Positions 17,933 to 62,750 of a DNA stretch of 64,000 bases are shown here, piece by piece. The stretch is taken from positions 1,056,001-1,120,000 of the forward strand of contig CAVPIB010000004.1 in assembly GCA_963704885.1 (NCBI GenBank), in the 5' to 3' direction. Both the position numbers and the translations under genes were made by a program. The stretch's first letter is position 1. Each line of letters begins with the position of its first letter. Below the pieces are notes generated by a model, which had not been told where the DNA came from, made no database searches, and saw only the letters and a list, made by a program, of their open reading frames with translations. Origin of the DNA: an uncultured Actinomycetes bacterium. Lineage in GTDB: Bacteria > Actinomycetota > UBA4738 > HRBIN12.

Positions 17933-18000
17933 GTGTTGCCTCCTCCCCCCGGGGCGACAGCCCCGCTCGAACTTCTCTCAAGACGATCGGCCATCATGCC

Positions 18001-35739: not shown

Positions 35740-35749
35740 GCTCGCTCCC

Positions 35750-46068: not shown

Positions 46069-47076
46069 TCAGTCGAGAAGGCCGAGCACACGTCCGAAGT
46101 TGTCGCCCAGGATCCCATCGATCTTGTGCTGGGGGATCGGCGGCAGCCCGCACGCATCGGCTTCCTCGTTCACACCGACCAACTTCTCCATCAGCTTCAC
46201 CGGGTCGTACAGGAACCCGGGGTAGTCGGTACCGAAGAAGATCTTCTCGAGCGGGACGAACATCGGCTCGCAGCGGGACAGCAACAGGAACAGGTCCCTC
46301 CTCGTGATGCTCGCGATCAGGTAGGACAGCTCCGCGTAGAAGTTGGGATGTTTCGTGAGCAGGAACAGAGCCTCGTCGACCCACGGCAGTCCGCAATGCG
46401 CGACGATCACGCGCAGATCCCTGAACACGCGGCCGATATCGTCCAGGAGCGCGGGCCGCCCGAGCTCGAGCTTGGCGTCGATGCGGGTCGAGCCCGCCTG
46501 GTGGATCATCACGGGGATCCCCAGTTCCTGAGCCTTGGCATAGACCGGGAAAGCGACGTCTGGATCGTTGGGCGCCCAATGCTGGTACATCGGGTAGAGC
46601 TTCACTCCCGAGAGTCCGAGCTCGACGACGGCCCGTTCGAGCTCGGCGACCGCCGCCTCTGGTCCGTTGTACATCGGGTTCACCGACGCGAACCCGATGA
46701 ACCGGTCGGGGTCGGTGTGCACGACCGCAGCGATGTAATCGTTGCAGAGGTCGGGGTGCTTCGGCCCGTCGACCCCGAGGAGCCCCGTCGTGTCGACGGT
46801 CCCGATCAGTCGCCCATCCAGCCACTGCGGCGAGATCGCCAGGACGACCACCTTGTCGAACCCGGGGTGATCGCGAAGCGACTCCTCCGGCCCGATCACC
46901 GGCCACCCCTTGCGCGTGAAGCCGCTCGCCTCCCACTCCTCCTCGGTCGGCATCCGGTGCGACGGAAGGAGTCCCATGCTCCTGTAGATGCACAGCGACC
47001 CCTCGCGGCCGTACTCGATGGTGAACTCCGGATCCTCGGCGAGGCTGAGGATGTGGCTGTGCGCGTCGATGATCAC
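46069..47076 (-). CDS. Amidohydrolase_2 family metalloenzyme
   Basis: IIDAHSH, GVKLYP, PVMIH, AHCG, FGTDYP; GTG at 47076 overlaps the corrected upstream stop (GTGA). Confidence 0.82.
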   Translation of the reverse strand: MIIDAHSHILSLAEDPEFTIEYGREGSLCIYRSMGLLPSHRMPTEEEWEASGFTRKGWPVIGPEESLRDHPGFDKVVVLAISPQWLDGRLIGTVDTTGLLGVDGPKHPDLCNDYIAAVVHTDPDRFIGFASVNPMYNGPEAAVAELERAVVELGLSGVKLYPMYQHWAPNDPDVAFPVYAKAQELGIPVMIHQAGSTRIDAKLELGRPALLDDIGRVFRDLRVIVAHCGLPWVDEALFLLTKHPNFYAELSYLIASITRRDLFLLLSRCEPMFVPLEKIFFGTDYPGFLYDPVKLMEKLVGVNEEADACGLPPIPQHKIDGILGDNFGRVLGLLD

Positions 47077-48654
47077 GACGCCACTCCCGGTGGCCGCTTC
47101 GCGTTGTAGGCATAGGCGGGCTCGACGGGCATCCCATACCAGCGCTGATAGAAGTCGATCACGTACGGCTCGACCAGCCGACCGAGCTCCGCCCACCTCT
47201 GCACGTCGCTCGGGGAGCCGGTAGACGCGCTCGTGCACCGCTGCCGCGAACCGTTCCTTCACGGCGTCCTCGTCGACAACGGTCACGCGCCCGCCTTCGA
47301 CCAGGACGCGGCCCTGCACCATCACCGTGTCGATGTCGGACGCCTCCGCCCGGTCGAGCACCACGTCCAGGAACGGCTCCTGGTCGTAGCGACCCGGCGG
47401 GAACATGATCCGTTCCTTGTCGACGATCAGCAGGTCGGCCAGCCGGCCGGGCGCGAGGGATCCAAGCCGGTCTTCCATCCCCAGAGCGCGAGCACCGTTG
47501 ACGGCGGCAGCCCGAAGCACCGCTTCGCTATCGAGCCGTTGCCGTTCGAACGTGTGTGGCATCCGCTGCAGGTAGCAGGCGAGCCGCAGCTCCTGGAAGA
47601 AGTCCTCGCGATCGGAGAACGAGATGCCGTCCGTGCCGAAGGCGATCCGCCCGCCGGTATCCATGATGTCGCGCACACGACAGATCCCGCTCGACAACCT
47701 GAGGTTCGACCCGGGATCGTTCGACGCGACGGCCCCTGAATCCGCGAAGATCTGTAGCTCGTCGTCCGTCACCCAGACGAAGTGCTCCAGCACGGTCTCG
47801 GGTGTCAACACCCCGATGTCGGCCAGACGCTGGAGCGCGGGCTTCCCGTACCGCTCGAGGTTGTAGAGCATCTCCGATCGCGTTTCGAGCGCGTGCGTGA
47901 TCATCCCCGTTCCGTGCTCGTCCGCCGTTCGTCGGCAGAGACGATAGAGGTCGTCGGAGCACGCCGGTGTCCAGTCCGGCGCCGTCACGATCCTGAAGCG
48001 GTCGTCTCGGCCATGCCAGGTGGAGTGCAGACGCTCGAACGACGCCATCACGTCCTCGATCGGCCAGGCATAGCCCATCGGTGAACCGCGAACCTCATCA
48101 GCCAGGTCGGCGGGCAGGCGTTCGAGGAAGCGTTCGTTGGGCTCGTGGACGTAGATGTTCTCGTCACGACTCACGAGGCCGAACGCGGTCCGCATGCCGA
48201 TGTCCTCGTAGGCCCTCAGCGCCGGAGGGCATCCGAAGTCGGACATGCCCGGCCTCCCGTAGTACATGTCGACCGTCGCGGTCTGCCCACCCTTCAGCGC
48301 GTTGACCAGCCCCCAGAGGACCCCTGTGTAGAGGTCTTCTTCCTCGATGTCGCCGGTCGCCGCCTGGATGAAGACGTTCGCACGCTCGAAGATGAACTGA
48401 TACAGCCCCGGACCGATGGCGAGCTCGGAGTGGTAGTGACAGTTCACGAATCCCGGCATCACGAAGTGGGCGCCCGACCCGAGCACGGCGTCGAACGGAC
48501 CCCGACCTTCGAGCTCGGTGCGTGCACCAGCCGCCACGATCGTCGAGCCCTCGACGATCAGCGCGCCGTCGGGGATCAGCGCCTGCTCACCCAGCGCGAC
48601 GATCGGGTCACCCAGGATCAGTCTTCGCCCAACGGGTGTATCTACGAGCGTCAT
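47073..48654 (-). CDS. Deaminase-type (AtzA/TrzA-like) amidohydrolase; frameshift near 47212
   Basis: NCHYH, HALE, EH, SNLRLSSG, GTDG; removing one base from the G run at 47212-47215 gives the C-terminus DVQRWAELGRLVEPYVIDFYQRW...AS* ending at 47073. Confidence 0.82.
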
Positions 48655-48666
48655 CGTGCGGCCTTC

Positions 48667-49992
48667 CTACGAGGGCACGACCATCCTTTCGAGCACGTGC
48701 TGGAACGCAAGGTTCGCCTCGTGCAGAGTGCGTCCCTCATCGATCGTCGTGAACTCTCGGTCGCGGTAGAGGATCTTCCCGTCGACGATCGTCGTGTTCA
48801 CCGCACTCCCGTTAGCGGCGAAGACCAGATGTGAGTACAGGTGCGCCTTCGACTCGGGGAACAACGGTGTGAACATCTGGTTGCCGAGGTCCACCGTGAT
48901 CACATCGGCCTTCTTGCCCACCGTCAGCTCGCCCGTGTCGTGCCTAAGCGCAGCGGAACCGTTGCGCGTGGCCATCCGCACCACGTCGGGCGCCTGCTGC
49001 AGGCTTGGGTCCACCCGGCTCGCGCGATGTATCAGCGACGCGAACTTCATCACCTCGAACAGGTCGCGGCTGTTGTTGCACTCAGCGGCGTCGTGACCGA
49101 GCCCGACGTTCAGCCCGGCGGCGAGCATCTCCGGAACGCGGGCGATCCCGTTGCCGAGCTTCGCGTTCGAGGACGGGTTGTGTGAGATCTGCGTTCCCGT
49201 CTCCCGCATCAGCGCGATCTCGGTATCGGAGAGCCAGACGCAGTGCGCCGCGATGCATCGATCGAATAGGATGCCGCAGTCGTACGCGACCTCGGTCGGA
49301 CGCCGGCCGAACCGTTCCTTGGAGTTCTCGACCTCGGTCAGTGACTCGTTCAGGTGGATGTGGATCCCCGTATCCAGATCGTCCGCGAGCATCCTCGTGT
49401 CTCTCAGAAGTCCTTCCGAGGCGAGCGGCAGCCACTCGATGCCGATGTACACCTCGATGCGGCCGTTCGCCGCGCCGTTTGATTGCTCGTAGGCGGCCTT
49501 GTTGTCCTCCAAGGTGTCGAGGTCGTGCTCGTCGTCGGCGACGTCGTTAGACAAGACGGCCCGGATCCCGATCTCCTCCGCCGCCCTGGCCAGCCCGCCC
49601 AACTGGCGGTACATGTCGTTGACCGTCGTTACGCCGCACTTGATCGACTCGCTGTAACTCGCGAGAGCCGCCCAGTAGGCCTCCTCCGGGTTCAAGGCCC
49701 GGATGATCGGATACCAACACGTGTCGAGGTACTCCCACAGCGGCAGGTGGTCGCTCCAGCCCTTGCCGACCGCGGTGTGGTAGTGCAGGTCGACGAGGCC
49801 GGGGAGGACCGCCTTGTCGGAGGCGTCGATCACGGTCGCGCCGGCCTCTTCGGTCCTGCCGGCGACATCGGCTGCGGTGCCGACGTCGGTGATCCGGTCG
49901 TTCTCGATCACGACGGTGCCGCCGAAGATCACGTCGTCCGCGTCGTTCATGGTGACCACGGTGCCGTTCTTGATGATGATCCGATCGCTCAT
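48667..49992 (-). CDS. Deaminase-type amidohydrolase (MTA/SAH deaminase-like)
   Basis: DLHYH, HIHLNE, AHCV, HNPSSNAKLGNG, GHDA. Confidence 0.85.
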   Translation of the reverse strand: MSDRIIIKNGTVVTMNDADDVIFGGTVVIENDRITDVGTAADVAGRTEEAGATVIDASDKAVLPGLVDLHYHTAVGKGWSDHLPLWEYLDTCWYPIIRALNPEEAYWAALASYSESIKCGVTTVNDMYRQLGGLARAAEEIGIRAVLSNDVADDEHDLDTLEDNKAAYEQSNGAANGRIEVYIGIEWLPLASEGLLRDTRMLADDLDTGIHIHLNESLTEVENSKERFGRRPTEVAYDCGILFDRCIAAHCVWLSDTEIALMRETGTQISHNPSSNAKLGNGIARVPEMLAAGLNVGLGHDAAECNNSRDLFEVMKFASLIHRASRVDPSLQQAPDVVRMATRNGSAALRHDTGELTVGKKADVITVDLGNQMFTPLFPESKAHLYSHLVFAANGSAVNTTIVDGKILYRDREFTTIDEGRTLHEANLAFQHVLERMVVPS

Positions 49993-50005: not shown

Positions 50006-51517
50006 CTATCGAGAGATCCCTTGCCCCGACTGGGGCACCGCCGAGGTCAGGTCGACCCAGACCGACTTCGAGTGCAGGTATGGCTCCAACGCCTCCTCGC
50101 CTAGCTCCTTGCCGAACCCGGAGTGCTTCCGACCGCCGAACGGCACCGCGACGTCGAACATCCCGTAGGTGTTGATCCATACGGTGCCGGCGTCGAGGCG
50201 GTCGGCCAGACGCAACGCCTTGCTCACATCCGACGTCCAGATGCCGGAGGCGAGACCGTAGTCGACGCCGTTCGCGAGCGCGAGCAGCTCCTCCTCGTCC
50301 TTCCACGGTATGACCGAAAGAACGGGACCGAAGATCTCCTCCTGGGCGACCTTCATGTCGTTGCGCACCCCGCTGATGACCGTCGGTTCCAGGAAGAAGC
50401 CGCCCTCGTGTCCGCTCACGCTCGCGTCCGAACCCCCGACGACCACGTCCGCGCCCTGCTCCCGGGCCGACTCGACGTAGCTCTTCACGCGCGTCCGATG
50501 GGCCGCCGAGATGAGCGGCCCCATCTGAGTGTCGGGATCGAGGCCGGAGCCCAGTCGGATCTGGCCCGCCCGTTCGCTGACCACGGCTGCGAGCTCGTCG
50601 GCCACCGATGCTTCCACGAAGAGTCGCGACCCGGCGACGCAAGCCTGGCCCTGGTTGAAGAAGATGCCGCCGAAGGCTCCGCTCGCGGCCGCATCGAGGT
50701 TCGCGTCCGCGAACACGATGTTAGGGCTCTTGCCTCCGAGCTCCAGGGACACGCGCTTCAGACCGTCGGCTGCGCTCCGCATGATCTCCTTCCCGGTGGC
50801 CGTCTGACCCGTGAAGGCGATCTTCTGCACGCCGGGATGCCGCACGAGCGCGGCACCGATGTCGGGTCCCCCGATCACGACGTTGACGACGCCGGGTGGG
50901 AAGCCGGCCTCGTGGACCAACTCCATCAGGCGGAGCGTGGAGAGCGGCGCGAGCTCGGATGGCTTGATCACGATCGTGCAGCCAGCCGCAAGCGCGGGAC
51001 CGAGCTTGTAGCCGACCTCCAGCAGCGGGAAGTTCCACGGTGTTATCGCCGCGACGACGCCGACGGGCTCCCGCTTGGCCACCGTGAACATCCCCGGGAT
51101 CGAGTTGGGCAGGACCTTCCCCTCGATCTTCGTCGTCCATCCCGCGTAGTAGCGCAGCAGCTCGATCGTCAGCGCGATGTCGACGGCCTCCGCCTCCCAC
51201 ATCGGCTTGCCGTTGTCCAGGACCTCGATCGTCGCGAACTCGTCCTTGTTCGCCTCGAGGAGGTCGGCGAGCGTCCACATCAGCCGGGCTCGCTGGGTCG
51301 CGGGCGTGGATCGCCACACGTCGAACGCGCGAGCCGCGGCCGCGACCGCGGCATCGACCTCGCGTTCGGTCGCGAGCGGCGCCTCGGCGAGGGTCTGGCC
51401 CGTCGCCGGGTTGATCGTCGCGAGCGAACCGTCCGTCTCCACGAACGCCCCGTCGATGTACAGGCGGAGCGGCCGGTCCAAGAACCCCATCGTCTGCTCG
51501 GAGATCGTGGATGCCAT
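50006..51517 (-). CDS. NAD-dependent aldehyde dehydrogenase
   Basis: PWNFP, KPSE, FTGQ, LELGGKSP, GQACVAGS, EEIFGP. Confidence 0.95.
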   Translation of the reverse strand: MASTISEQTMGFLDRPLRLYIDGAFVETDGSLATINPATGQTLAEAPLATEREVDAAVAAAARAFDVWRSTPATQRARLMWTLADLLEANKDEFATIEVLDNGKPMWEAEAVDIALTIELLRYYAGWTTKIEGKVLPNSIPGMFTVAKREPVGVVAAITPWNFPLLEVGYKLGPALAAGCTIVIKPSELAPLSTLRLMELVHEAGFPPGVVNVVIGGPDIGAALVRHPGVQKIAFTGQTATGKEIMRSAADGLKRVSLELGGKSPNIVFADANLDAAASGAFGGIFFNQGQACVAGSRLFVEASVADELAAVVSERAGQIRLGSGLDPDTQMGPLISAAHRTRVKSYVESAREQGADVVVGGSDASVSGHEGGFFLEPTVISGVRNDMKVAQEEIFGPVLSVIPWKDEEELLALANGVDYGLASGIWTSDVSKALRLADRLDAGTVWINTYGMFDVAVPFGGRKHSGFGKELGEEALEPYLHSKSVWVDLTSAVPQSGQGISR

Positions 51518-51533
51518 ATCTCGTTTGCCTCCT

Positions 51534-52562
51534 TCAGCTCGTGAGCTCGAGCACCTGACGCCCCAATACGGCGCGCCTGCGCAGCGCATCGAGCGCTTCG
51601 TGGATCCCTTCGAGCGGATAACGGCCCGCGATGGGCACCGTCAAAGCGCCCGCCGCCGCGAGCGTGAGCGCGTCCTGCAGGTCCAGACGCGTCGCCGCCA
51701 CCGTGGACACGAACGACGTCTCCGGCAGGATGAATTCGATCGGATGGATCTCGAGTAACTGGTCCGTGTAGCCCGTCGACACGAAACGCCCGCCCTTGGC
51801 GAGGGACCGGATGCCCGCGTTCATGGTCTGGGTCGTCCCCACGAGCTCGTAGAAGACGTCGGTGCCTCGTCCGTCCGTGAGCGCTCGCACTCGGTCCGGC
51901 ACGGTCTCGTAGCTCTCCGGCGAGTCGACCAGCACCCCATCGCTCGCACCATGTGATCTCGCAAGCTCGAGCTTCTCCTCCGAGTCGCCGATCGCGATCA
52001 CTCGTGCGCCGGCGTGGGCCGCCGCCTGAACCACGATGATGCCGACGCCACCGATCCCGTTCACGACCGCGGTGTCTCCCAGGCGCAGCCCCGAGAGCTT
52101 GGTCGCGTGTATCGCCGTCATCCCTGCGCACGTGAGGACGGAGGCGGCCGCCAGGTCGACGTCGTCGGGAACCGGCACGGCGTTCTGCTCGGGGACGACG
52201 ACGTACTCGGCGTCGCCTCCGTCCCGGTTGAAACCGAGCTGTTCGGGCTCGTTGTCGCAGATGTTCGTCCGGCCCTTGAGGCACTGCTCGCACCGACCGC
52301 AGAAGATCTTGTTGTAGATCGCGACGCGCGATCCGGTCGTCAAGGACACTCCATCTCCGACGCCCTCGACCATGCCGGCGGCCTCGTGCCCGAGCGTCAT
52401 CGGGTACGGGTCCGGCTTGATCATGCCGTCGAGGATGTGGAGATCGGTCCCACACACACCCGCGGCGTGGATCCGGATCAGCACCTCGCCCGGCCCCGGG
52501 ATCGGGTCGTCGATCTCGTCCAAACGCAGAGATAGGTCTTCGTGGATCCGTACCGCACGCAT
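51534..52562 (-). CDS. Zn-dependent alcohol dehydrogenase (MDR)
   Basis: GVCGTD, GHE, CGRCEQC...C, GIGGVG. Confidence 0.92.
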   Translation of the reverse strand: MRAVRIHEDLSLRLDEIDDPIPGPGEVLIRIHAAGVCGTDLHILDGMIKPDPYPMTLGHEAAGMVEGVGDGVSLTTGSRVAIYNKIFCGRCEQCLKGRTNICDNEPEQLGFNRDGGDAEYVVVPEQNAVPVPDDVDLAAASVLTCAGMTAIHATKLSGLRLGDTAVVNGIGGVGIIVVQAAAHAGARVIAIGDSEEKLELARSHGASDGVLVDSPESYETVPDRVRALTDGRGTDVFYELVGTTQTMNAGIRSLAKGGRFVSTGYTDQLLEIHPIEFILPETSFVSTVAATRLDLQDALTLAAAGALTVPIAGRYPLEGIHEALDALRRRAVLGRQVLELTS

Positions 52563-53270
52563 CTACGCTCCTTCTCCCTCGGTGGGACCGGCAGAATGGT
52601 CGTCGCCATACGCCATGTCCCAGAACTCGGCCTCGTACCGTGTGGATCGCTCGAAGATCCGCGAGAGGCTCGCCATGCGGCCCTCGTCGCTCGGATCGAC
52701 GAGTCTGTCGAGCAGAGCCGTGCTCTGCGCCACCAGCCCGTCGTATTCGTCGTTGCCGAACATCCCGATCCAGTCGGCGTAGATCGGGTCATCCGGCGGG
52801 TGCGCCGTGAGCGGCCGCGCCAACTCCCCGTAGCTCCACTGGCACGGCAGCACCGCGGTGAGTCCATCCGCGCAGTCGCCGAGAGCGCAGACGGAAAGGA
52901 GGTGCCGCGTGTACCCGTAGGTGGCCGGGAACATCTCGCCTCGGCCGGCGAACGTGTCGGGATCACCTCCAAGGCGATCGAGGAAAGCGAGGTTGGCAGG
53001 GATCTCGCCCTCGACGATCCGCGCCTGGAACCTCGTGAGGACCGTGATCGCATCCCGGTCGGGGGCCTTCCCGACGATCATGCCGATGGCTCGCGCATAG
53101 TCCTCGAGATACGGGATGTTCTGAGTGAAGTACCGCCTGAAGGTCTCGTGCGGGAGCGAGCCGTCCGCGATGCCCCTTACCATCGGGTGATGGACCGCTG
53201 CATCCCACGAATCCCTCCCTTGCCGGTGAAGGATCGAAGCCACGCGGCCATCTGGCCGTTCCCCGGTCAC
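52563..53270 (-). CDS. tenA: TenA / thiaminase II family protein (Cys-type, variant)
   Basis: HPMVRGIADGSL, YTRHL, LPCQWSY (catalytic Cys), YADWIGMF, YEAEFWDMAY. Confidence 0.88.
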   Translation of the reverse strand: MTGERPDGRVASILHRQGRDSWDAAVHHPMVRGIADGSLPHETFRRYFTQNIPYLEDYARAIGMIVGKAPDRDAITVLTRFQARIVEGEIPANLAFLDRLGGDPDTFAGRGEMFPATYGYTRHLLSVCALGDCADGLTAVLPCQWSYGELARPLTAHPPDDPIYADWIGMFGNDEYDGLVAQSTALLDRLVDPSDEGRMASLSRIFERSTRYEAEFWDMAYGDDHSAGPTEGEGA

Positions 53271-53989
53271 TCAACCACCTCGTCTTCGAACGCCGCCCTC
53301 GTGGCCAGCTGATCTGCCAGGACGCTGCCGATGTGGACCCGCATCAGCCGCTCCGCCTCGTCCGGATCGCGCGCGACGATCGCCTCCACGATCGCTGCGT
53401 GTTCCTCGACGGATGACTCGACCCGTCCGGGGATGCTCTCCGTGAGCTTGCCGATCCTCGTGAGGTGCGCCCGCAGGTTGTCGATCAGGGCCCCGATCCG
53501 CTCGTTCTTCACCTGTGCGTACACGATCACGTCGAACCGCTCCAACAGTCCCGCCAGCCCGACCAGATCGCCCGCGTCCCGGAGCTCACGGCTGCGGTCG
53601 ACCACGTCGCGCAGCGCGCCGACGGTTTCATGGTTCGACCCCTCGGCAGCTGCACGCGCGGCGGCCCCTTCCAGTAGCGCGCGCAGCTCGTAGATCTCCA
53701 TCAGATCCCGCTCCGAGTAGCCCGATACGACCGCGCCTTTGAAGGTGGTCGTCTCCACGAGTCCCTCCAGCTTGAGTCGCGCGAAGGCTTCGCGGAGCGG
53801 CGTCTTGCTCACCCCCAGCTGTTCGGCCAGCGCCGCCTCCCGCAGCGGCTCGCCGGGAAGGAGACGAAGCTCGATGATCGCGTCACGGAGCTCCTCCCAC
53901 ACCCAATCGGTCATGTTGCGGCGGTCGGGGCGTCCCGTGAACACGGGCCGTTCTTCACTCGTCTCCGCGCTTCGCAGGTCGTCCATCAA
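53267..53989 (-). CDS. GntR/FCD-family transcriptional regulator
   Basis: LREAALAEQLGVSKTPLREA HTH; EIYELRALLEG and EEHAAI in the FCD domain. Confidence 0.92.
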   Translation of the reverse strand: MMDDLRSAETSEERPVFTGRPDRRNMTDWVWEELRDAIIELRLLPGEPLREAALAEQLGVSKTPLREAFARLKLEGLVETTTFKGAVVSGYSERDLMEIYELRALLEGAAARAAAEGSNHETVGALRDVVDRSRELRDAGDLVGLAGLLERFDVIVYAQVKNERIGALIDNLRAHLTRIGKLTESIPGRVESSVEEHAAIVEAIVARDPDEAERLMRVHIGSVLADQLATRAAFEDEVVE

Positions 53990-54438
53990 TCGTCTCCTTG
54001 TCCGAACCGGCGTTCATCTCCCGCTGGGGTCGATGCCTCCTCGACGAGCTCGACGAGCACGCCGCCGAAGGCTGCAGGATGCAGGAAGGCGATACGCGTT
54101 CCCATACCTCCAGGCCGCGGCTCACTATCGATGAGCGGAACGCCGCGCTCAGCCAGGTCGGCGAGCGCCGGCGCGATCGCGTCGACCGCGAAAGCGACGT
54201 GGTGCAGCCCAGGGCCCCGCTTGTCGAGGAACCGCTGGACCGTGCCGTCCCCCGTTGCCTCCAGCGTCTGAACGTACGAGGGTCCGAGCTCGTACATGCG
54301 CTCCAGGAACCCGGGCCCTTCCTCCGCGTGCACGGAGGGACCGATCAGCGATCCGAGCGCGTCCTCGCAGACCGGGTCGTCGCCGTGGGCGATCGCGACG
54401 TGGTGCAGACCCGTGACGTGCCAGCCCTCGGTGCTCAT
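53986..54438 (-). CDS. VOC-family methylmalonyl-CoA epimerase-like protein
   Basis: HHVAIA, FLDKRGPGLHHVAF, IAFLHP, GVLVELVE. Confidence 0.85.
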   Translation of the reverse strand: MSTEGWHVTGLHHVAIAHGDDPVCEDALGSLIGPSVHAEEGPGFLERMYELGPSYVQTLEATGDGTVQRFLDKRGPGLHHVAFAVDAIAPALADLAERGVPLIDSEPRPGGMGTRIAFLHPAAFGGVLVELVEEASTPAGDERRFGQGDD

Positions 54439-55439
54439 CTGGCGCCTCCCTCCGACGACTGCGTGAAACAACGGGAGAAGGCCTCGACCGTCTCCATCCG
54501 TCGGGCGCCCAGCGGGAAGACGTGGACCGAATCGGCGCCTGCGGCGGCCACGGCCTCGATGCGCTCCCGAGCCTGACTCGCGTTGCCGGCCAGCGCCACA
54601 GCCCGAACGAACTCGTCCGGCAGCAAGCGCGCCGCCTCCTCGGCCTCCTGGAACTCCCCACCCGCGTAGCGTTCGCGGACCTGCTCGATGAGCGACGACG
54701 GGAGGCCCGCGAGCTCACAGATGACGGGAGCCGTCTGCGGGAACCACGCGGCGATCGACCGGGCTGATGCGAGCGCGGCGTCCTCGTCGTCGTCGATCGC
54801 CCCGTACGCGAACACGGCCACGTGCGGCCGCGGTCGCCCCGCCTTCGCGGCGCCCCGGTCCACGTGTTCGAGCGCCCACGCGAGCGCGTCGGGGAACAGG
54901 CCGACGAGCAGGATCACCCCATCGGCGATCTCGCCGGCCAGCTCGAGCGTCTTCGGTCCGCTCGCCGAGATGTAGACGGGGATGTCGGGACGGGCGCCGA
55001 ATCGAAGATGCGCGTCGTGAAGCTCGAAGCCTGCGTCCTCGACCGTTACCTCCTCGCCCGACCACAGCGCACGGATCGCGCCGATCGTCGCTCGGAGCGA
55101 GGCGAGTCTCGCCGGTCGCATCCCCAGCGCGAGGAGGGGTCGGTCACCGGCGCCGATCCCCAGGATCATGCGGCCGTCGGAGATCTCGTCCACCGTCGCG
55201 GCCGCCACCGCCGTGATCGCGGGATGGCGAGTGAGCGGGTTCGTGACGGCGGTCCCGAGCAGTAACCGGGGAGACGTCATCGCCGCGAGGGTGAGGTAGG
55301 CGTAGGAGTTGCGAGCGTGCAGGGACGAATCGGTGAGCCAGAGGTTCGAGTAGCCCAGAGCATCGATCCTTTCGACCATCGATCGGAACTCGCCGGGCGG
55401 ATACGCCCCCTGGAGCACCACGCCCGACCGAAGGCTCAT
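54435..55439 (-). CDS. LLM-class (Mer-like, probably F420-dependent) oxidoreductase
   Basis: [40 protein letters not shown]; ATG at 55439. Confidence 0.87.
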   Translation of the reverse strand: MSLRSGVVLQGAYPPGEFRSMVERIDALGYSNLWLTDSSLHARNSYAYLTLAAMTSPRLLLGTAVTNPLTRHPAITAVAAATVDEISDGRMILGIGAGDRPLLALGMRPARLASLRATIGAIRALWSGEEVTVEDAGFELHDAHLRFGARPDIPVYISASGPKTLELAGEIADGVILLVGLFPDALAWALEHVDRGAAKAGRPRPHVAVFAYGAIDDDEDAALASARSIAAWFPQTAPVICELAGLPSSLIEQVRERYAGGEFQEAEEAARLLPDEFVRAVALAGNASQARERIEAVAAAGADSVHVFPLGARRMETVEAFSRCFTQSSEGGAR

Positions 55440-56517
55440 GCGGAAAGCTCCTCGAACCGCTCGACCGTCCGCGCCAGTGCCCGCACCCCGTCCTCGATCG
55501 GACCCGTCTCGATCCATTCCTCCGGCGTGTGCTCGCCCGATCCTGTGGTCACTCCCACGGCGATCGCCGGGATCCCACGGGCGTGGGCGGCGTTCGCATC
55601 GGTGCTCGTGGGTGGAGTCACCGAAGCTATGCCGACCTCGCCGAGCGCGTCCTGCGCGGCGCGGACGAGGGCATGTTCCTGGTCCACGCGGCCGGCGGGC
55701 CGGTCGCCGAGCACCTCTTGCTCCAGCGAGAGGGGTGGATCTACCTGCATGGCCAAGTCGTCCACCTGGCGCGCCAGCGCCGCGAGAGCATCCGGATCGT
55801 CGGCCCGGAGGTCGAGCTCGAACCACGCCTCGCGTGCCCGCATGTTGATGCCCTCGCCACCGCCGATGCGACCGATGTTCACGGAGGTCCCCTCGCGGCG
55901 AGGGATCGCGGCGATCGACCCGACGAGCTCGGGCGACACGGTGGACCGCGCTCGGCATCTCGGCGGCCTCCCACGCGTGACCACCAGGACCGCTCACGCG
56001 GATGCGACGGCGAACCGATCCGACGCCGACCGTCGACACGCGGCCCAGGTAGTTCCCTTCGACGGCGACGAACCCGGCGACCGGCGAGGGCGAGGCGTCG
56101 AGCGCTGCGATCGCTCCGCGCAGGTTGCCGAGACCCTCTTCACCCACGCTGGCGAGCAGCCAGACGGCCCCTCCATCGTCGTGCGAGCAACGCGCCGGCC
56201 GAGGACAGGGCTGCGACGCCGACGGAGTCGTCGCCGACGCTCGGACCGACGAGCGTCTCGCCTTCGACACGCACGATGTGGGGCACCCCGGATCCGAACA
56301 CGGTGTCGAGGTGTGCGCACAGGATGACGATCGGACCGTCACCACTCCGCGCCCGTCCCCAGACGTTGCCGGCCGCGTCTACGTGCACCTCATCGAGCCC
56401 ATCGAGCTCCCACCACGATCGGACCAACGCGGCTCGCTCCCCTTCGGCCCCCGTCGGCGCGGGCACCTCGGCGATCTCGATCGTTCGACGCACCACGGTC
56501 TCCGTGACGTCGCTCAC
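55436..56517 (-). CDS. M20 metallohydrolase; frameshifts near 56180 and 55932
   Basis: AHLDTVF, GPSVGDD | VGEEGLGNLRG, GGHAW | NIGRIGGG, STDAN, HTPEEW spread over three frames; each junction is repaired by removing one base. Confidence 0.8.
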
Positions 56518-57716
56518 GAGGCGATCGCCACCCCTTCGGCCACCAGCGCGCCGACGTCCTCCCGGCTGTAGCCGAGCTCGGTCAAGACGTCGAACGTGTG
56601 CTCCCCGAGCGCGGGCGCCGGCGACGGATAGTCGAGCGGCTCCAGGTCGAACCGCACCGGCGTCCCCACGACGCGGTAGTCGCCGGCGCTCGCGTGATGC
56701 AGCTCCTGCACCGCGCCCAGAGCCCGCGTCTGTTCGCTCGCGAGGATCTGCGCGATGTCTTGGACCTCGGCCGCCGGGACGCCTTCGGCGCCGAGCAACG
56801 CCAGCCAGTGCTCGCTCGGCTCCCGGCGAAGAACCTCTTCCAGCGCGGCCGTCAACTCGTCGCGGTGGCTGACGCGAGAGGCGTTATCTGCGAACCGGGG
56901 ATCGTCGAGCAGGTGCTGGGCACCGAGCACCCCGCAGCACCGGACCCACAGGTCTTCGGAGCCGGCCCCCGCCAGCACGATCCAACCGTCGGCGGTGCGG
57001 AACCCGCCGTAGGGCGCGAAGGTCGGAGAGTGCGTCCCCAGCAGGCCGGGCACCTGCCCCGAGACGAACGTGCTCGCCGCGAGCGACCCGAGGGCGGCGA
57101 GCGCGAACTCGAGCAACGAGGACGACACGTGCCTCCCGATCCCGGTGCGCTCCCGTTCGACGTGCGCGGCCAAGAGGCCGAACGCGCAGCACATGCCCGC
57201 GCCGACGTCCAGCACGGGAGCGCCGACCTTCACCGGGCCCGACCCCTCGCTGCCGGTGACGCTCATCAGCCCGCTCTCGGCCTGAAGGATCAGATCGAAC
57301 CCGCCGCGGGCCGCGTCGGGCCCGACGTCGCCATAGCCGGAGATAGAGCCGTAGACGATCGACGGGAAGCGCTCGTGCACGGTCTCCCAGTCCAGCCCGT
57401 AACGCGCGAAGCTTCCCGGCCGGGCGTTCTCGACCAGGAAGTGCGAGGAGGCGAGCAACCGGTCGACCGCCTCGGTCGCCAGAGGCGAGCGGAAGTCCAG
57501 AGCGAGGCTCCGCTTGCCCGAGTTCAGCGAGAGGAACAGCACCGACTGATCCCCGAGCCGCTCGGTCCCTTGCACCCGGTACGGATCTCCCCCCGGCGGC
57601 ACCTCGAGCTTCACGACGTCGGCGCCGAACGCCGCCAACAGCGCGGTCGTCTGCGATCCGGCCACGAAACGCGTCAGATCGAGAACGCGCAGGCCTTCGA
57701 GCGGCCGGCTCACCAT
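56514..57716 (-). CDS. Family III CoA-transferase (CaiB/BaiF)
   Basis: [51 protein letters not shown]. Confidence 0.92.
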
Positions 57717-59305
57717 GGATGCGGCTCCCTGAACTCGCCGAATACCGATCGGAAGACATCCGACAGCTCTCCCAAAGTGGCCCCGACTCGCACAGCGTCG
57801 ACCAGCGAGGGCATCACGTTGGAGCCGTCACGGGCGGCGGCCTCCACGACGGCCGTCGCGTCAGCGCACGCCGCCTGGTCGCGGGCAGCCACGCGCGACG
57901 CGGTGCGCGCCACCTGCCGGTCCGCGATCGAAGGATCCAGCGCGAACAGCTCCGGGGTCTCGGCGGAGGTCTCAGCTGGGTCCGCGTACACGTTCACCCC
58001 GACCCGCGGTCGCGTTCCGTCGGCGGTCTCGCGTTCGATCCGGTACGCGGACTCTGCGATCCAGCGTTGCGACACGCCTCGTTCGATCGCCTCCACCGCG
58101 CCTCCGAGCGCCGCGATCTCGGTCAGGACCTCGTTCGCACGCGCCTCGAGCTCGTCGGTCAGCGTCTCCAGGTAGTAGGAACCGGCCAAAGGATCGACCG
58201 TCCGAGGCACGCCCGACTCCAGGGCGACGATCTGCTGCGTGCGGAGCGAGAGCGTCACCGCCTCCTCCGACGGGATCTCGAACGCCTCGTCGTAGCCCAT
58301 CACGTGGATCGACTGCGCTCCCCCGAGCACCGCCCCGAGGCACTGGATCGTCGAGCGGATGATGTTGTTGAGAGGCTGCTGCGCGGTAAGCGTGGTGCCT
58401 GAATTGCCCGAGAAGAACCGCAGCCGCCCGGAGTTCGGGTCCTTCGCGCCGAACCGTTCGGTGGCGATCCGGTACCACATCCGTCGCGCCGCGCGGAGCT
58501 TCGCCACCTCCTCGAACAGGTCCATCGTGGTGGCGAAGTGGAACGAGAGCCGCGGTGCGAACGAATCGAAGTCCAAGCCGCGAGCGACCAGAGCTTCCGC
58601 GTACGCGATCGCCGACGCCAGCGTCAGTGCCAGCTCCTGGACCGCGTCGCAGCCAGCCTCACGCGCGTGGTATCCGGTGATCGAGATCGGATTGAACCTC
58701 GGGAGCCGCCCCGACGCGAACTCGATCACGTCGCAGGACAACCGCATCGACGGCTCGGGCGGGAAGACGAAGGTCTTGCGGGCGAGGAACTCCTTCAAGA
58801 TGTCGTTCTGAAGCGTGCCGGCGAGCGCTCCCTGGGACACGCCCTGCCGCTCGGCGGCCACGAGGTACATCGCCAGGATGATGGGGGCGGTCGCGTTGAT
58901 CGTGAAGTTCACCGAGATCTCGTCCAGCGGCAGCCCCGCGAACAGGTCGACCATGTCCTCCGCGGTGTCGATCGCCACCCCGACCCGCCCGACCTCCGAC
59001 CGCGCCACGGGATGACCGGAGTCGTAGCCGAGCTGCGTTGGAAGATCGAACGCGACCGACAATGCCGTCTGGCCTCGATCGAGCAGGAAGCGGAACCTCT
59101 CGTTCGCCTCCTCGGGAGACCCGAAGCCTGCGAACTGACGCATGGTCCACAGCCGTCCGCGATACATCGAGGGATAGGGACCGCGCGTGAACGGCGGCGC
59201 TCCGGGGGCGCCGAGCCGTTCGGCCAACCCGGGCGCCAGGTCGTCTTCCGCATAGACCTCGCGCACAGGGATGCCGGCGTCGGTCACGTCGCGGACCTCG
59301 CTCAC
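57710..59305 (-). CDS. B12-dependent acyl-CoA mutase, large (substrate-binding) subunit
   Basis: [51 protein letters not shown]; GTG at 59305. Confidence 0.92.
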
Positions 59306-59707
59306 GGCTCCACCCGCTCTCGCGACGCCAGCGCGAGTACCCCCTCGACCACCTCGTGCAGTCCCGTGCCGACCGGGTAGACGGCCGCGACGCCCAGCTC
59401 CCGTGAGCGCTGCGGCGTCCACATCGGGGACCGTGCCGCCCACGACGACCGGGATGTGGACGCCCTCGGCATCCCGCGCCTGCAGGAGGTCGGCCGCGAG
59501 CGGCATGTGCGCGCCCGACAGCACCGAGATCCCGATCACGTCGACGTCTTCCTGGATCGCCGCCTGCACGATCTCAGGGGCCGTCCGGCGCAGGCCCAGA
59601 TAGACGACCTCCGCGCCGGCGTCCCGCAGCGCCATCGCGATCACCTTGATGCCGCGGTCGTGCCCGTCCAGTCCGGGCTTCGCGAGCAGGACGCGCGGCT
59701 GCCTCAC
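59302..59707 (-). CDS. Cobalamin-binding small subunit of the mutase; frameshift near 59400
   Basis: [10 protein letters not shown] (DxHxxG), SVLSGAH, GG; removing one base at ~59400 gives [12 protein letters not shown]...RVEP* with the stop overlapping the large-subunit GTG. Confidence 0.88.
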
Positions 59708-60666
59708 ACGAGCTCCCCCGCAACCATCACGGGCCGCCCATCCAGCTCGAGAGTCGCATCGCGCATCACGCAGTCCAGATGCGCGATCGCGTCCACGTTG
59801 CCGCCGTATGCGATGGAGTTCCCCAATGCGATGTGCGCCGTGCCGAGCGCCGACTCCGTCTCCATCGCCACCCCGCACACCCGTCCCGACGGATTGAACG
59901 CCATCGAGACCTCCGCCAGGTTGCCCATCCGGTCGTCGGCGCATCGCGCGAGCATCTCCTGGAGCCGGCCCGCCTCCTCCCCCTCGACGCCGGCCAGCTC
60001 GCCGGCCGCGAAGTGGAGCACGACGGGCGAGGGCAGCGGCCCCTGGCCCATGAACAACAGGTCGGCGTCCACGACGACGATGCCCTCGCTCGAGCCCTCG
60101 ACCGGAGCCGTCCCCGACTCGATGTCGGGCGGCGCCATGTAGTCGCCGTCATCACGAGCGAGTCCGTGCAACACCCGGCCGGGACGGCCTTCGACCGATC
60201 CGCGCAGATCGGTGCCGGCAGGCGTCGTTAGGTGGAAGGCGGCGGCCTTCCCCCATGCGGCGCCCACCCGTTCGGCGTCGGCACGGATCGCGTCGAAGTC
60301 GACCGCGAGCGGGCCATCGTCGCGGAACGTCTCCAGCCGAACGCCGGGCATCGCGAGGTAGCGCACGCCCGCCTGGGTGGCGCTGCGTCGGGCCGCGCTC
60401 GAGCCGATGAACAGGCTCGTCAGCTCGATGACGGCACCCGCCTCGAGCATCGCGGCCGCAGCGGTGCTGGGTGGCTCCGAACCGGGCAACGGGGGCGTGG
60501 GGATCTTCGAGACCACGGCCACGCCGTTGCGAGCCTCGATGCCCGTGACCAACCCGGCCACGACGTCCAGGTCGGTCCCGTCGTCGGTCAGCAGCAGGAC
60601 CTGTTCACCCGACCGAACGGCCAGACACCGATCGAGCAGGTTGTCGAAGCCCTTCGGCACGTCCAC
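59704..60666 (-). CDS. M29 'leucyl aminopeptidase'-like / NicX-like metalloenzyme
   Basis: [41 protein letters not shown]. Confidence 0.7.
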
Positions 60667-60670
60667 GCCA

Positions 60671-61855
60671 TCAGGTCCCTTCGGCTGACGTCAGCGCCAG
60701 CGCGGCAAAGACCGAGTAGACCTTCGTCGCCTCGTGGATGTCCTCGACCGTCAGGTGCTCGTCGGGGCAGTAGACGGGAGGTCCTCCGGGTCCGAAGATC
60801 ACGGTCGGCACCTTCTCCCCGAAGCTGGCCGTGTCGCCTAGCCAGTTCTCCACGACGAGCGGCGGCTCCTCCCCTCGCACGTCGCGCACCGCCGCTCGCA
60901 TCAGTCGCACGACGTCGTCGTCCGGAGCTGCGAGGTACCCCGCCTTCACGTCGGCCAGCACGACCTCCGCACGGAAGCGCGGGTCGGCCTTAGCCGCCTC
61001 GCCCAGGCACCTGTCGATCTCGGCGCGAACTTCGTCGATCGATACGCCGGGCTGCGGCCGGCAGTCGACGCGGATCACGCACTCGTCCGGGATCATGGAG
61101 GGACCACCGGGCGCGAGCCCACCGTAGATCCGGCCCGGGACTATGAAGGTCTCGGCTCCGAACAGGTCGACGATCCAGGGCTCCAGCTGCGGCTCGTACT
61201 TCGACGCGTCCAGGGCCAGCACCGCCTGGGCCGCGAGCACGTTCGCGTTGATCGCCTGTGGTTTGTGGCACGTGTGGGCGGACCGGCCGACCGTCGTGAT
61301 ATCGAAGTAGTAGCGACCCCTGTGTCCCAGGCAGACCTGGTTGTCGGTCAGCTCCCCGAGGACGCATAGGTCGGCGTCGAACTCGTCGAAGTACGCGATC
61401 GAACCGAGCTGGTCGCCCATATGGTCGGCCACCGCGGCCATGCTGACGGTGCCCTTCAGCGGCAACCCCGATGCGCGGACCGATTCGATCGCCACGATCT
61501 GACACGCCAGCGCGGCCTTCATGTCCATGACGCCGTGGCCGTATACCGACCCATCGATCAGGGCACCCGAGAACGGCTCCGTGACGCTCCACCCTTGCGA
61601 TACCGGCTTCGTGTCCATATGGCCGGTGAGGACAACCCTCGGGCCATCCCCGAACGAGGCGTGCCCGACGGCGTTGGGTCGGTCCGGAAGCACCGGTTGA
61701 AGCTGCACGCCCTCGAAGCCCGACTCGGACATAACGGAGGCCAGGAACGCAGCCAGTTCGCCCTCCTCACCGAGGACGGACGGGATCCGGCACACCTCCT
61801 GGACGAGCTCCACAGCGCGATCCAGATCGAGCGCATCCAGGACGTCGGTGGTCAC
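60671..61855 (-). CDS. ArgE/DapE/YlmB-like M20 deacylase
   Basis: GHMDT, GHGVMDMK, LGE, GRSAH; the usual DEE segment reads ADHM. Start uncertain (61855 or 61882). Confidence 0.8.
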   Translation of the reverse strand: MTTDVLDALDLDRAVELVQEVCRIPSVLGEEGELAAFLASVMSESGFEGVQLQPVLPDRPNAVGHASFGDGPRVVLTGHMDTKPVSQGWSVTEPFSGALIDGSVYGHGVMDMKAALACQIVAIESVRASGLPLKGTVSMAAVADHMGDQLGSIAYFDEFDADLCVLGELTDNQVCLGHRGRYYFDITTVGRSAHTCHKPQAINANVLAAQAVLALDASKYEPQLEPWIVDLFGAETFIVPGRIYGGLAPGGPSMIPDECVIRVDCRPQPGVSIDEVRAEIDRCLGEAAKADPRFRAEVVLADVKAGYLAAPDDDVVRLMRAAVRDVRGEEPPLVVENWLGDTASFGEKVPTVIFGPGGPPVYCPDEHLTVEDIHEATKVYSVFAALALTSAEGT

Positions 61856-61862
61856 CGAGGTG

Positions 61863-61988
61863 GTATCTGATATCTCACGCACCAGGGCGGAAAGGTAACG
61901 TCTGCACTGCCGATGGGTCAAACCCATCGTGGATCAGGTGCAAGGTCTTCGTTTGACAACGGTTCGCATCTCGTATCTCATATGCCGC
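61863..61988. promoter_or_regulatory. Divergent promoter region with 7-bp periodic RYATCTS repeats (putative GntR operator)
   Basis: GTATCTG-ATATCTC at 61863-61876; GCATCTC-GTATCTC at 61966-61979; TTGACA at 61953-61958; 8-bp inverted repeat at 61911-61929. Confidence 0.5.
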
Positions 61989-62750
61989 ATGACAGCCCTC
62001 GCCACCCCGGCGATAGAGCTCAGAGGTGTGCGCCAGCGATTCGGTGATGTCGTCGCGCTCGCCAACGTGGACTTCACGGTCAACCGGCACGAGCGGCTGG
62101 GGATCGTGGGCCCGAGCGGCTGTGGCAAGTCCACCCTCCTCTCCGAGATCGCGGGACTCATCCAGCCCGACGAGGGGACGGTCTCGATCGACGAGGCAAC
62201 GACGCCGAAGGAGCGCCTCAAGCGGTGTGCACTGATGCCGCAGCGAGATCTCCTGCTCCCCTGGCGGACCGCCATCGACAACGCCGCGATCGCCCTGCAG
62301 AACCGGGGCATGAAGATCGCCCCGGCACGGGAGAAGGCGCGGCCGCTGTTCGAGCGGTTCGGTCTCGCGCAGTTCGAGGAGCGGATGCCTGCCGAGCTCT
62401 CCGGCGGCATGCGCCAGCGCGTCGCGTTCCTGCGGACCCTCATGGCCGAGAAGGACATCCTCCTCCTCGACGAGCCGTTCGCGGCCCTCGACTCGATCAC
62501 CCGGTCCAGCATGCAGGAGTGGCTGCTCTCCGCGCTCGAGCAGGAACCCCGGACGGTCCTGCTCGTTACCCACGACGTGGACGAGGCACTCTTGCTCACC
62601 CATCGGGTCATGGTGATGTCCGCGCGCCCCGGGCGGATCGTCCGCACGCTCGAGACGGACCTACCGCGCGATCGTTCGCGCCGCGAAGTCGTCACATCGC
62701 CGCAGTTCTCGGCCTTGAAGGAGTCCGCACTAGAGGCGCTGGAACTATGA
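61989..62750 (+). CDS. ABC ATP-binding protein (ThiZ-like)
   Basis: GPSGCGKST, MPQRDLLLPWRT, LSGGMRQRVAFLRT, LLDEPF. Confidence 0.92.
   Translation: MTALATPAIELRGVRQRFGDVVALANVDFTVNRHERLGIVGPSGCGKSTLLSEIAGLIQPDEGTVSIDEATTPKERLKRCALMPQRDLLLPWRTAIDNAAIALQNRGMKIAPAREKARPLFERFGLAQFEERMPAELSGGMRQRVAFLRTLMAEKDILLLDEPFAALDSITRSSMQEWLLSALEQEPRTVLLVTHDVDEALLLTHRVMVMSARPGRIVRTLETDLPRDRSRREVVTSPQFSALKESALEALEL

Follow-up and report, generated by a model that had tools for sequence, protein, structure and literature searches.

In Bacillus, the pyrimidine of base-degraded thiamine is recovered by a salvage route in which FAMP (N-formyl-4-amino-5-aminomethyl-2-methylpyrimidine) is converted by the amidohydrolase YlmB into the corresponding aminomethylpyrimidine (AmMP), which TenA in turn converts into the hydroxymethylpyrimidine HMP (passages of PMC5635689 and PMC10470507); sequences matching YlmB resemble M20 proteins of the ArgE/DapE type (a passage of PMC10470507). 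TenA proteins defined by an active-site cysteine make up the Cys-type class, TenA_C (passages of PMC5635689 and PMC10277260). In the Pyrococcus furiosus homologue, the aspartate equivalent to Asp44 of Bacillus subtilis TenA hydrogen-bonds the amino groups of bound HMP phosphate (HMP-P), and the D44A exchange strongly lowers the activity of the B. subtilis enzyme—the contact between Asp44 and the 4-amino edge of the pyrimidine being taken here from a single passage on the P. furiosus homologue (PMC5623701). Here, we analyzed a stretch of 64,000 nucleotides from an uncultured Actinomycetes bacterium (GenBank assembly GCA_963704885.1, contig CAVPIB010000004.1, positions 1,056,001 to 1,120,000; the window in what follows), in which the minus-strand open reading frame (ORF) 52563-53270 codes for a 235-residue TenA-family protein with Asn in place of this Asp. 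Judged by its sequence, the protein represents a subfamily of its own among the Cys-type TenA proteins (thiaminase II/aminopyrimidine aminohydrolase fold). We give an even chance to the proposal that this subfamily is catabolic, belonging to a breakdown operon rather than to thiamine salvage and making a hydroxymethyl-pyrimidine that would then be oxidized, deaminated and degraded.

The family assignment of the protein is clear. PF03070 matched with an E-value of 4.9e-34 (118.4 bits against a gathering cut-off of 22, covering 209 of 210 model positions), which places the protein in the TenA/THI-4/PQQC superfamily, and the top matches of a phmmer search against all chains of the Protein Data Bank (PDB) were structures of B. 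subtilis TenA (1tyh, 1to9, 1yaf/1yak and 2qcx; E 1.4e-26 to 5.8e-26), to which it is about 30% identical over some 205 residues. The salvage_TenA equivalog model TIGR04306 gave 126 bits, below its cut-off of 130. The phmmer alignment is ungapped around the site of interest, with 'frryftqNipyl' lying on B. subtilis 'fkyyvlqDsyyl', and the literature numbering of the B. subtilis enzyme was obtained by counting along the printed alignment. The gene and its key codons are as follows.

52563..53270, minus strand: TenA_C-type protein, Asn/Asn/Phe variant (PF03070, match to B. subtilis TenA)
53118..53120, minus strand: AAC codon of Asn51, equivalent to B. subtilis Asp44 (motif YFTQNIPYL, aligned to QDSYYL)
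52992..52994, minus strand: AAC codon of Asn93, equivalent to B. subtilis His86 (phmmer alignment)
52758..52760, minus strand: TTC codon of Phe171, equivalent to B. subtilis Tyr163 (phmmer alignment)
52842..52844, minus strand: TGC codon of Cys143, equivalent to the catalytic Cys135 (motif LPCQW, phmmer alignment)
52632..52634, minus strand: GAG codon of Glu213, equivalent to Glu205 (motif YEAEFW, phmmer alignment)

Among the residues that characterize TenA_C enzymes, the catalytic Cys, Glu205 and the aromatic cage (Tyr54, Tyr120 and Phe216, corresponding to Tyr47, Tyr112 and Phe208) are thus present, and Asp44 and Tyr163 are replaced by Asn51 and Phe171. Because Cys143 is present, the protein does not belong to TenA_E, the Cys-less class with a conserved Glu instead; nor does it have the hallmark of regulator-type TenA proteins, i.e., loss of both Cys135 and Glu205, since both residues are retained. 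A preliminary description of this DNA had reported the Asn at the position of Asp44 together with retention of the catalytic Cys and the C-terminal Glu, and translation and the ungapped alignment bear out each of these points (Cys143 = Cys135, Glu213 = Glu205). The substitution was thus correctly seen; the account was incomplete in that it lacked the accompanying changes of Tyr163 to Phe171 and of His86 to Asn93.

The variant is fixed among close relatives. Scanning one genome per species yielded 107 relatives, and 80 loci, 54-83% identical to the query, were retained; labels such as L003 and L061 denote individual members of this set. Both Asn51 and Phe171 occur in all 81 sequences (the query plus the 80 loci), and the full eight-residue signature is found in 76 of the 81, the remaining five having damaged C-termini. 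Likewise, a search of 5.8 billion protein clusters returned 1283 matches, the best 120 of which (90%-cluster representatives, 68-94% identical, from uncultured Actinomycetota) all carry Asn51, Asn93 and Phe171 as well as the Cys; Cys and Glu are kept together in 118 of these closest 120 representatives. When the clade was compared with the group of representatives having Asp and Tyr, with the five damaged loci left out, position 44 was Asp in 85/85 Asp/Tyr-type representatives versus Asn in 76/76 clade members, and position 86 was His in 67/85 versus Asn in 75/76. Further clade-specific positions are Met30 (Phe in 78 of the 85 Asp/Tyr rows), Pro91, Ala92, Gln144, Ser146 and Gly148. The loci come from Actinomycetota in 79 cases (Actinomycetes, Streptosporangiaceae and Acidimicrobiales) and from a metagenome-assembled genome of Dormibacterota in one. 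A tblastn search of 72,556 plasmids gave 125 records, all below 60% identity (33-36% among the matches listed) and annotated as ordinary tenA, with no usable context for the variant.

To place this clade within the family, we drew on a phmmer search against 1.84 billion 50%-cluster representatives, which gave 2562 matches; the best 150 were used, a sample biased towards the query. The 128 of them with at least 190 residues were aligned with the query. In these 129 rows, the type with Asp at position 44 and Tyr at position 163 was by far the most frequent (60 DYYCYYEF and 24 DFYCYYEF), next to 10 rows of NYYCYFEF plus fragments for the Asn/Phe (N/F) type, four with Asn and Tyr (N/Y) and two with Asp and Phe. 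A maximum-likelihood tree was built from the 114 intact Cys-type rows (105 of the 150 representatives, the query and eight of the loci); sequences shorter than 190 or longer than 300 residues, gapped at key columns or without the Cys or the Glu were left out. The query falls in a clade of 12 rows, all of them N/F, with an SH-like approximate likelihood ratio (SH-aLRT) support of 99. The preliminary description had proposed asking whether the Asn variants form a clade linked to this neighborhood; the substitution does mark a distinct clade, that of the query, which is tied to the gene neighborhood in 80 loci. This clade sits in a looser group of 30 rows (support 92, not starred) alongside two other clades: one of three N/Y rows and one N/F row (support 100), and one of 14 rows (support 98) comprising six N/F rows and, nested among them, eight Asp rows in which Tyr163 or His86 is missing. 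Of the 85 Asp/Tyr rows, 83 lie outside the 30-row group and two within the 14-row clade, and a single stray N/Y row stands among the Asp/Tyr rows. Asn variants are hence a minority in this query-biased sample (14 of 105 representatives) and are concentrated in one region of the tree. The residues at positions 44, 86 and 163 form the triad DHY in 67 of the 114 rows and NNF in 17, the others being mixed. We claim only that the three replacements co-occur; co-evolution was dropped as a claim, there being too few independent transitions.

Two side observations concern other branches of the same tree. The 14-row clade includes TenA proteins with Asp once more, combined with Leu, Phe or Val for Tyr163 and Asn for His86, and the resulting triads (DNL, DNF and DNV) suggest further variants of the TenA pocket. 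In addition, the cultured species Nocardioides mangrovi encodes an N/F-type TenA (WP_224123860.1) that belongs to a more distant clade and is 38% identical to the query, a possible experimental entry point.

The genomic context of the gene offers a view of its role. In the window, the GntR gene upstream of TenA ends in a stop codon that overlaps the GTG start of TenA (GTGA), and the TAG of TenA is directly followed by the ATG of the next gene, which encodes a Zn-dependent alcohol dehydrogenase (ADH). This first arrangement, with ADH directly after TenA, recurs in 52 of the 80 loci. A second one, found in 17 loci, runs from the mutase through the coenzyme A (CoA)-transferase, M20, a luciferase-like monooxygenase (LLM) family protein, two Amidohydro_1 genes and one Amidohydro_2 gene to a third Amidohydro_1 gene on the opposite strand and TenA, followed, all on the opposite strand, by a glucose-methanol-choline (GMC) family oxidoreductase, GntR and three ATP-binding cassette (ABC) transporter genes; it thus retains the same partners. 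In 21 loci, TenA has a GMC oxidoreductase as its neighbor, and these loci do not overlap with the 52 that have the adjacent Zn-ADH, so that an alcohol-oxidizing gene adjoins TenA in 73 of the 80 loci. This exchange of two enzyme families at the same site, preserved through a rearrangement, is the strongest evidence for the role of TenA that the gene context provides, and the alternation indicates a TenA product that is an alcohol oxidized further. A hydroxymethyl product is what would be expected of a TenA-type reaction, and its further oxidation would be the opposite of what salvage needs. As an observation on the exchanged gene itself, the GMC-family FAD oxidoreductase of L061 (10705-12165, minus strand) is convergent with TenA, as in the 20 other loci, and among the NCBIfam models it matches the MftG-type mycofactocin dehydrogenase best, under the cut-off.

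The other genes of the cluster, all identified by family matches, are listed below in the order in which they surround TenA.

46069..47196, minus strand: AH2C, Amidohydro_2 protein, a separate gene in relatives (PF04909)
47085..48654, minus strand: AHN, second TRZ/ATZ-type Amidohydro_1 protein (best solved relative 4f0r, E 6e-41)
48667..49992, minus strand: AH1, Amidohydro_1 protein, hydrolase of the TRZ/ATZ or S-adenosylhomocysteine (SAH) deaminase type (best solved relative 4f0r, E 5e-54)
50006..51589, minus strand: aldehyde dehydrogenase (ALDH), true start probably internal to the ORF (PF00171, E 5e-181)
51534..52562, minus strand: Zn-dependent ADH, beginning directly after the TenA stop codon (ADH_N and ADH_zinc_N)
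53267..53989, minus strand: GntR/FCD regulator, stop codon overlapping the TenA start (PF00392 and PF07729)
53986..54471, minus strand: VOC or methylmalonyl-CoA-epimerase-like protein (PF13669; TIGR03081 90.8 bits, under the cut-off of 114.95)
54435..55400, minus strand: luciferase-like (Mer/F420-type) LLM oxidoreductase (PF00296 and F420 LLM models)
55442..56517, minus strand: M20a, M20 deacylase broken across three frames (intact 359-residue gene in L003)
56514..57716, minus strand: family III CoA-transferase (PF02515, E 2e-112)
57710..59701, minus strand: B12-dependent acyl-CoA mutase, with a small B12-binding subunit (about 59323-59701) and a large subunit (57713-59305) (family matches)
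59704..60666, minus strand: conserved 320-residue protein with no Pfam or NCBIfam match
60671..61927, minus strand: M20b, M20 deacylase of the ArgE/DapE family, candidate counterpart of the FAMP deformylase YlmB (family match)
61929..63553, plus strand: ABC transporter ATPase (61929-62750) and permease (about 62744-63553) (family matches)
63633..63998, plus strand: NMT1/THI5-like (ThiY-like) substrate-binding protein, extending past the end of the window (PF09084, E 6e-11)

The genes on the minus strand are tightly packed, with overlapping start and stop codons at TenA and at other junctions, and the ABC importer genes diverge from them. None of the neighboring proteins reached an NCBIfam equivalog cut-off. 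AH1 and AHN keep the HxH and HxxE motifs (by eye in the translations); 4f0r, the best solved relative of both, is a methylthioadenosine/SAH deaminase, and family models place HutF-type iminohydrolases in the same Amidohydro_1 subgroup. The two deaminase-type genes that the preliminary description had placed downstream of TenA are therefore real, namely AH1 and the N-terminal part of the ORF at 46069-48654. That description was right about the deaminases in this context and missed the alcohol-oxidation step beside TenA, the ThiY-like importer and the M20 deacylases. As for the conserved 320-residue protein, its sequence, by eye, may resemble M29 or aminopeptidase-T-like proteins.

A conserved partner was counted in a locus whenever it had a relative there with an identity of 50% or more across 100 residues or more. 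On this basis, GntR was present in 72 of the 80 loci, AH1 in 69, Amidohydro_2 and the CoA-transferase in 59 each, the mutase in 54, the adjacent ADH in 52, ALDH in 36 and VOC in 35. When any match was counted, LLM reached 70 of 80, M20a 57, M20b 44, the 320-residue protein 39 (beside the mutase), the ABC ATPase 32 and the permease 35, with the ABC parts overall at 32-35. These figures are lower bounds, since many loci are short contigs. Outlying window genes (PPK2, nitroreductase, isochorismatase and AA_synth) had a counterpart in none of the 80 loci, which sets the limits of the conserved unit.

Comparison of the reading frames with the close relative L003 clarified the gene models. M20a extends over three frames, which implies two frameshifts, one near 55940 and one around 56200-56360, and its counterpart in L003 is intact (6765-7844, 359 residues). 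AHN is shifted near 47200, its final 43 or so residues lying in another frame, and the C-terminus of the small mutase subunit shifts frame near 59400, with an open frame continuing into the large subunit. Two apparent fusions were rejected accordingly. The 861-residue Amidohydro_1 plus Amidohydro_2 ORF (46069-48654, minus strand) corresponds to separate genes in different frames in L003, with a frameshift at the junction, and the two counterparts lie on opposite strands in several loci; the 744-residue B12-binding plus mutase ORF (57710-59944, minus strand) corresponds in L003 to separate genes for 133 and 532 residues with a four-base overlap. TenA itself stays in a single frame over 236 residues aligned to L003. 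As read from the sequence, the defects in the window are indels, of a kind that typically stems from assembly error or from early decay, and they have no bearing on the Asn codon.

A link to thiamine-type pyrimidines comes from the importer and the deacylases. The full-length binding protein of L061 has 3ix1 as its best solved relative (E 1e-35 over residues 59-351, almost its full length), a structure deposited as a FAMP-binding protein, followed by an uncharacterized ABC binding protein and then by the THI5/THI13 HMP-P synthases. Together with the PF09084 match of the window fragment, this result points to a ThiY-type binding protein, the ligand being predicted by homology. The M20b counterpart in L003 scored 170.6 bits with TIGR01910, under the cut-off of 217.6, and both M20 proteins are ArgE/DapE-family deacylases below their equivalog cut-offs, likened to YlmB at the level of the family rather than by direct comparison with the YlmB sequence. 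With a binding protein, M20 deacylases and TenA present, the cluster has candidate counterparts for all three parts of FAMP salvage. A salvage regulon was not apparent: in neither the window nor seven related loci of both arrangements did any Rfam family reach its gathering score, hence no thiamine pyrophosphate (TPP) riboswitch was found, and no HMP kinase or thiamine-phosphate synthase domain (thiD/thiE/thiM-type) was found among the window ORFs scanned with Pfam, which covered all but a few short stretches. No description of a TenA with the Asp-to-Asn change, or of a gene cluster for thiamine-pyrimidine catabolism, was found in the literature searched, which mostly excluded subscription journals.

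On these grounds, the catabolic proposal can be spelled out as a sequence of steps. The importer would take up a 5-(substituted-methyl)pyrimidine like those arising from thiamine breakdown (FAMP, or a compound resembling aminomethylpyrimidine), and an M20 enzyme would strip off its N-acyl group. The TenA Cys would then add at C6, the substituent on the C5-methylene would be expelled and water added, giving the 5-hydroxymethyl pyrimidine, which ADH and ALDH, or the GMC enzyme, would oxidize to the 5-carboxylate. For the later steps we can offer guesses: amino groups might be removed, and the ring reduced and opened, by the deaminases, by the Amidohydro_2 protein acting as a decarboxylase or a hydratase, by the LLM reductase and by the second of the M20 enzymes; an acetamidine remnant might be hydrolyzed, HutF-type iminohydrolases being of the same Amidohydro_1 subgroup; this second M20 enzyme might carry out a deacetylation; and the CoA-transferase, the epimerase-like protein and the mutase might channel a branched C4 acid into central metabolism. 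In this scheme, decarboxylation is a guess in particular because the Amidohydro_2 protein, whose distant PDB relatives are aromatic-acid decarboxylases and the LigJ hydratase, has no detectable sequence link to isoorotate decarboxylase. An 'IDCase-like' homology for this protein was accordingly dropped after the PDB search, which held no isoorotate decarboxylase match, and the analogy was kept.

What the altered pocket would mean for substrate recognition is a separate question. In enzymes of the thymidylate synthase type, addition of a Cys at C6 of the pyrimidine leads to an intermediate with an exocyclic C5-methylene, followed by the addition of water or hydride. In thymidylate synthase, replacing Asn177 by Asp switches the preference from deoxyuridine monophosphate (dUMP) to deoxycytidine monophosphate (dCMP) (a passage of PMC8670742). 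By analogy, the Asn/Phe/Asn pocket may read a neutral lactam edge (4-oxo, N3-H) instead of the 4-amino/N3 edge, a tentative idea to which we give clearly less than an even chance. Should a 4-oxo edge be recognized, with Asn in place and the Tyr hydroxyl and the His lost, a deaminase would have to act before TenA. The 4-oxo idea agrees with that of the preliminary description, which had argued that the downstream deaminases match such a substrate; that match is evidence for neither order, the gene order being silent on whether they act before or after TenA. Taken further, the cluster might constitute an undescribed, complete route for the import and mineralization, by soil Actinomycetota, of the pyrimidine half of vitamin B1 (or of its alkaline products FAMP and AmMP), with TenA retuned to the 4-oxo form by the Asp-to-Asn change along with those of Tyr to Phe and His to Asn—as a whole, a rather unlikely scenario built on the same analogy.

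Several points weigh against the catabolic proposal in its thiamine-related form. For the clade, each link to a substrate is drawn from homology or from the surrounding genes; ThiY-like binding proteins with about 35% identity are able to bind different ligands, and an unrelated cluster of the same window holds a second NMT1-type transporter. Thiamine breakdown products are rare in nature, an odd fit with at least 15 catabolic genes. The scheme leaves the detailed roles of the mutase, the CoA-transferase and the LLM enzyme unexplained, and isoorotate decarboxylase was absent from the PDB matches of the Amidohydro_2 protein at E-values up to 1. Because 79 of the 80 loci come from related Actinomycetota, synteny may be partly inherited rather than selected, and the tree holds only two to three independent Asp/Asn transitions, so that independent-pairs tests, in which Asn was set against the loss of Tyr163 or of His86, could reach no significance. 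Finally, the four frameshifts in neighboring genes relative to L003 mean that this particular copy is possibly decaying or poorly assembled.

The alternative that survives best, unlikely though it appears to us, is that the cluster degrades another N-heterocycle with a leaving group on a ring-attached methylene, the Asn/Asn/Phe pocket reflecting that ring. Candidates include 2-oxo- or 2,4-dioxopyrimidines such as derivatives of uracil or cytosine with a 5-aminomethyl or 5-hydroxymethyl group, as well as bacimethrin-type compounds or a fragment of a pterin or folate. The pocket does depart from canonical TenA at three positions, the two to three TRZ/ATZ-type hydrolases per locus exceed what the thiamine pyrimidine, with just one amino group on its ring, would need, and the low natural abundance of thiamine fragments would favor a commoner substrate. 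The wider window is moreover an island of N-heterocycle catabolism, with three molybdenum hydroxylases, more Amidohydro_1 genes, a nitrilase-family hydrolase and the second NMT1-type transporter. However, the nearest solved relative of the binding protein is a FAMP-binding protein, TenA, the M20 deacylase and the ThiY-like importer mirror the parts of FAMP salvage (as given in passages of PMC5635689 and PMC10470507), and TenA has kept its aromatic cage, its Cys and its Glu.

Two further blocks of the window are recorded here as observations in their own right. Positions 1-22700 hold a second N-heterocycle catabolic block with two molybdenum hydroxylase large subunits and their 2Fe-2S partners, three Amidohydro_1 proteins, a pyridoxal phosphate (PLP) enzyme, an M20 peptidase and a CN-hydrolase, as well as two permeases and an NMT1/THI5-type binding protein at 17414-17977 that seems to be truncated or split. 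The stretch 35636-43913 contains a third molybdenum hydroxylase, made up of a FAD subunit and a fused subunit for 2Fe-2S and molybdenum cofactor; it is followed by a 471-residue protein without a family match, an AA_synth protein (matching PF06684 at E 4e-68), an amidohydrolase and a hydrolase of the isochorismatase family, and these genes presumably resemble those for nicotinate or nicotinamide breakdown.

Quite improbable, in our assessment, is that the protein is an ordinary thiamine-salvage TenA, in which Asp-to-Asn is a tolerated, lineage-specific change that leaves specificity unaltered, the catabolic neighbors being merely syntenic. All remaining named active-site residues are indeed retained, the salvage_TenA cut-off was missed by only 4 bits, the usual partners of salvage TenA (a ThiY-like importer and an M20 deacylase) are close by, and the loci come mostly from related lineages. 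Yet position 44 is not neutral, given the effect of D44A in the B. subtilis enzyme (PMC5623701, the passage on this mutant), and Asn51 and Phe171 are invariant down to 54% identity to the query. Neither a TPP riboswitch (window and seven loci) nor an HMP kinase (among the ORFs scanned) accompanies the gene, which overlaps or abuts its neighbors; and the adjoining alcohol-oxidizing enzyme, kept through changes of both gene order and enzyme family, would destroy the product of salvage. A non-enzymatic role, as a regulator (like LysR2) or a binding protein, is very improbable: TenA-family transcription activators exist (a passage of PMC12817078) and there is a weak phmmer match to LysR2 among PDB entries (9wdg, E 6.7e-6), but the regulator-like TenA group is one without Cys and Glu (a passage of PMC5623701), both of which are kept in 118 of the best 120 of the 1283 cluster matches, and a dedicated GntR regulator gene already adjoins TenA. 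That the Asn codon arose through an error of sequencing, as the preliminary description had allowed, or of assembly, as the four frameshifts in an assembly that is not error-free might hint, has practically no probability left, since Asn is conserved in 81/81 sequences and in 120/120 of those best cluster matches, TenA runs in one frame and the defects seen are indels, not substitutions.

If the catabolic proposal is correct, a protein annotated everywhere as a salvage enzyme would have had the same chemistry recruited for catabolism, and the cluster would give a first gene-level handle on the removal of the thiamine pyrimidine, or of a close analogue, in soil—with implications for models of vitamin-B1 vitamer cycling. 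A specificity rule contrasting Asp/His/Tyr with Asn/Asn/Phe could also correct the automatic 'thiaminase II' labels on hundreds of metagenomic proteins. Moreover, if the tentative 4-oxo reading is true, the amino/oxo rule that separates dCMP hydroxymethylase from thymidylate synthase would have been reached independently in an unrelated fold.

Set against known systems, the proposed pathway has a parallel in fungal thymine salvage, in which thymine 7-hydroxylase is followed by isoorotate decarboxylase, an enzyme of the Amidohydro_2 family. The likeness lies in the conversion of a 5-hydroxymethyl group to a 5-carboxylate and its subsequent removal by an Amidohydro_2-family decarboxylase; here, in contrast, dehydrogenases or a GMC enzyme would carry out the oxidation, and the PDB search revealed no match between the Amidohydro_2 protein and isoorotate decarboxylase. 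Regarding substrate recognition, thymidylate synthase (Asn, dUMP) and dCMP hydroxymethylase (Asp, dCMP) illustrate how one residue at the edge formed by N3 and the 4-substituent decides between oxo and amino (a passage of PMC8670742); these enzymes differ from TenA in their unrelated fold and nucleotide substrates, and we infer the same role for the Asp44 position of TenA. The ThiXYZ-YlmB-TenA system of Bacillus shares with the window cluster an NMT1/THI5-type binding protein and TenA, with the ArgE/DapE-type M20 deacylases as candidate counterparts of YlmB by family, whereas in the window cluster neither an HMP kinase nor a TPP riboswitch was found and the hydroxymethyl product is apparently oxidized and the ring dismantled. 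Finally, the window TenA matches B. subtilis TenA in its PF03070 fold family and at Cys135, Glu205, Tyr47, Tyr112 and Phe208, but it differs from that enzyme in carrying Asn for Asp44, Asn for His86 and Phe for Tyr163 and in scoring under the TIGR04306 cut-off—and, instead of a thiamine-regulon context, it is set in what we predict to be an operon for oxidation, deamination and ring breakdown.

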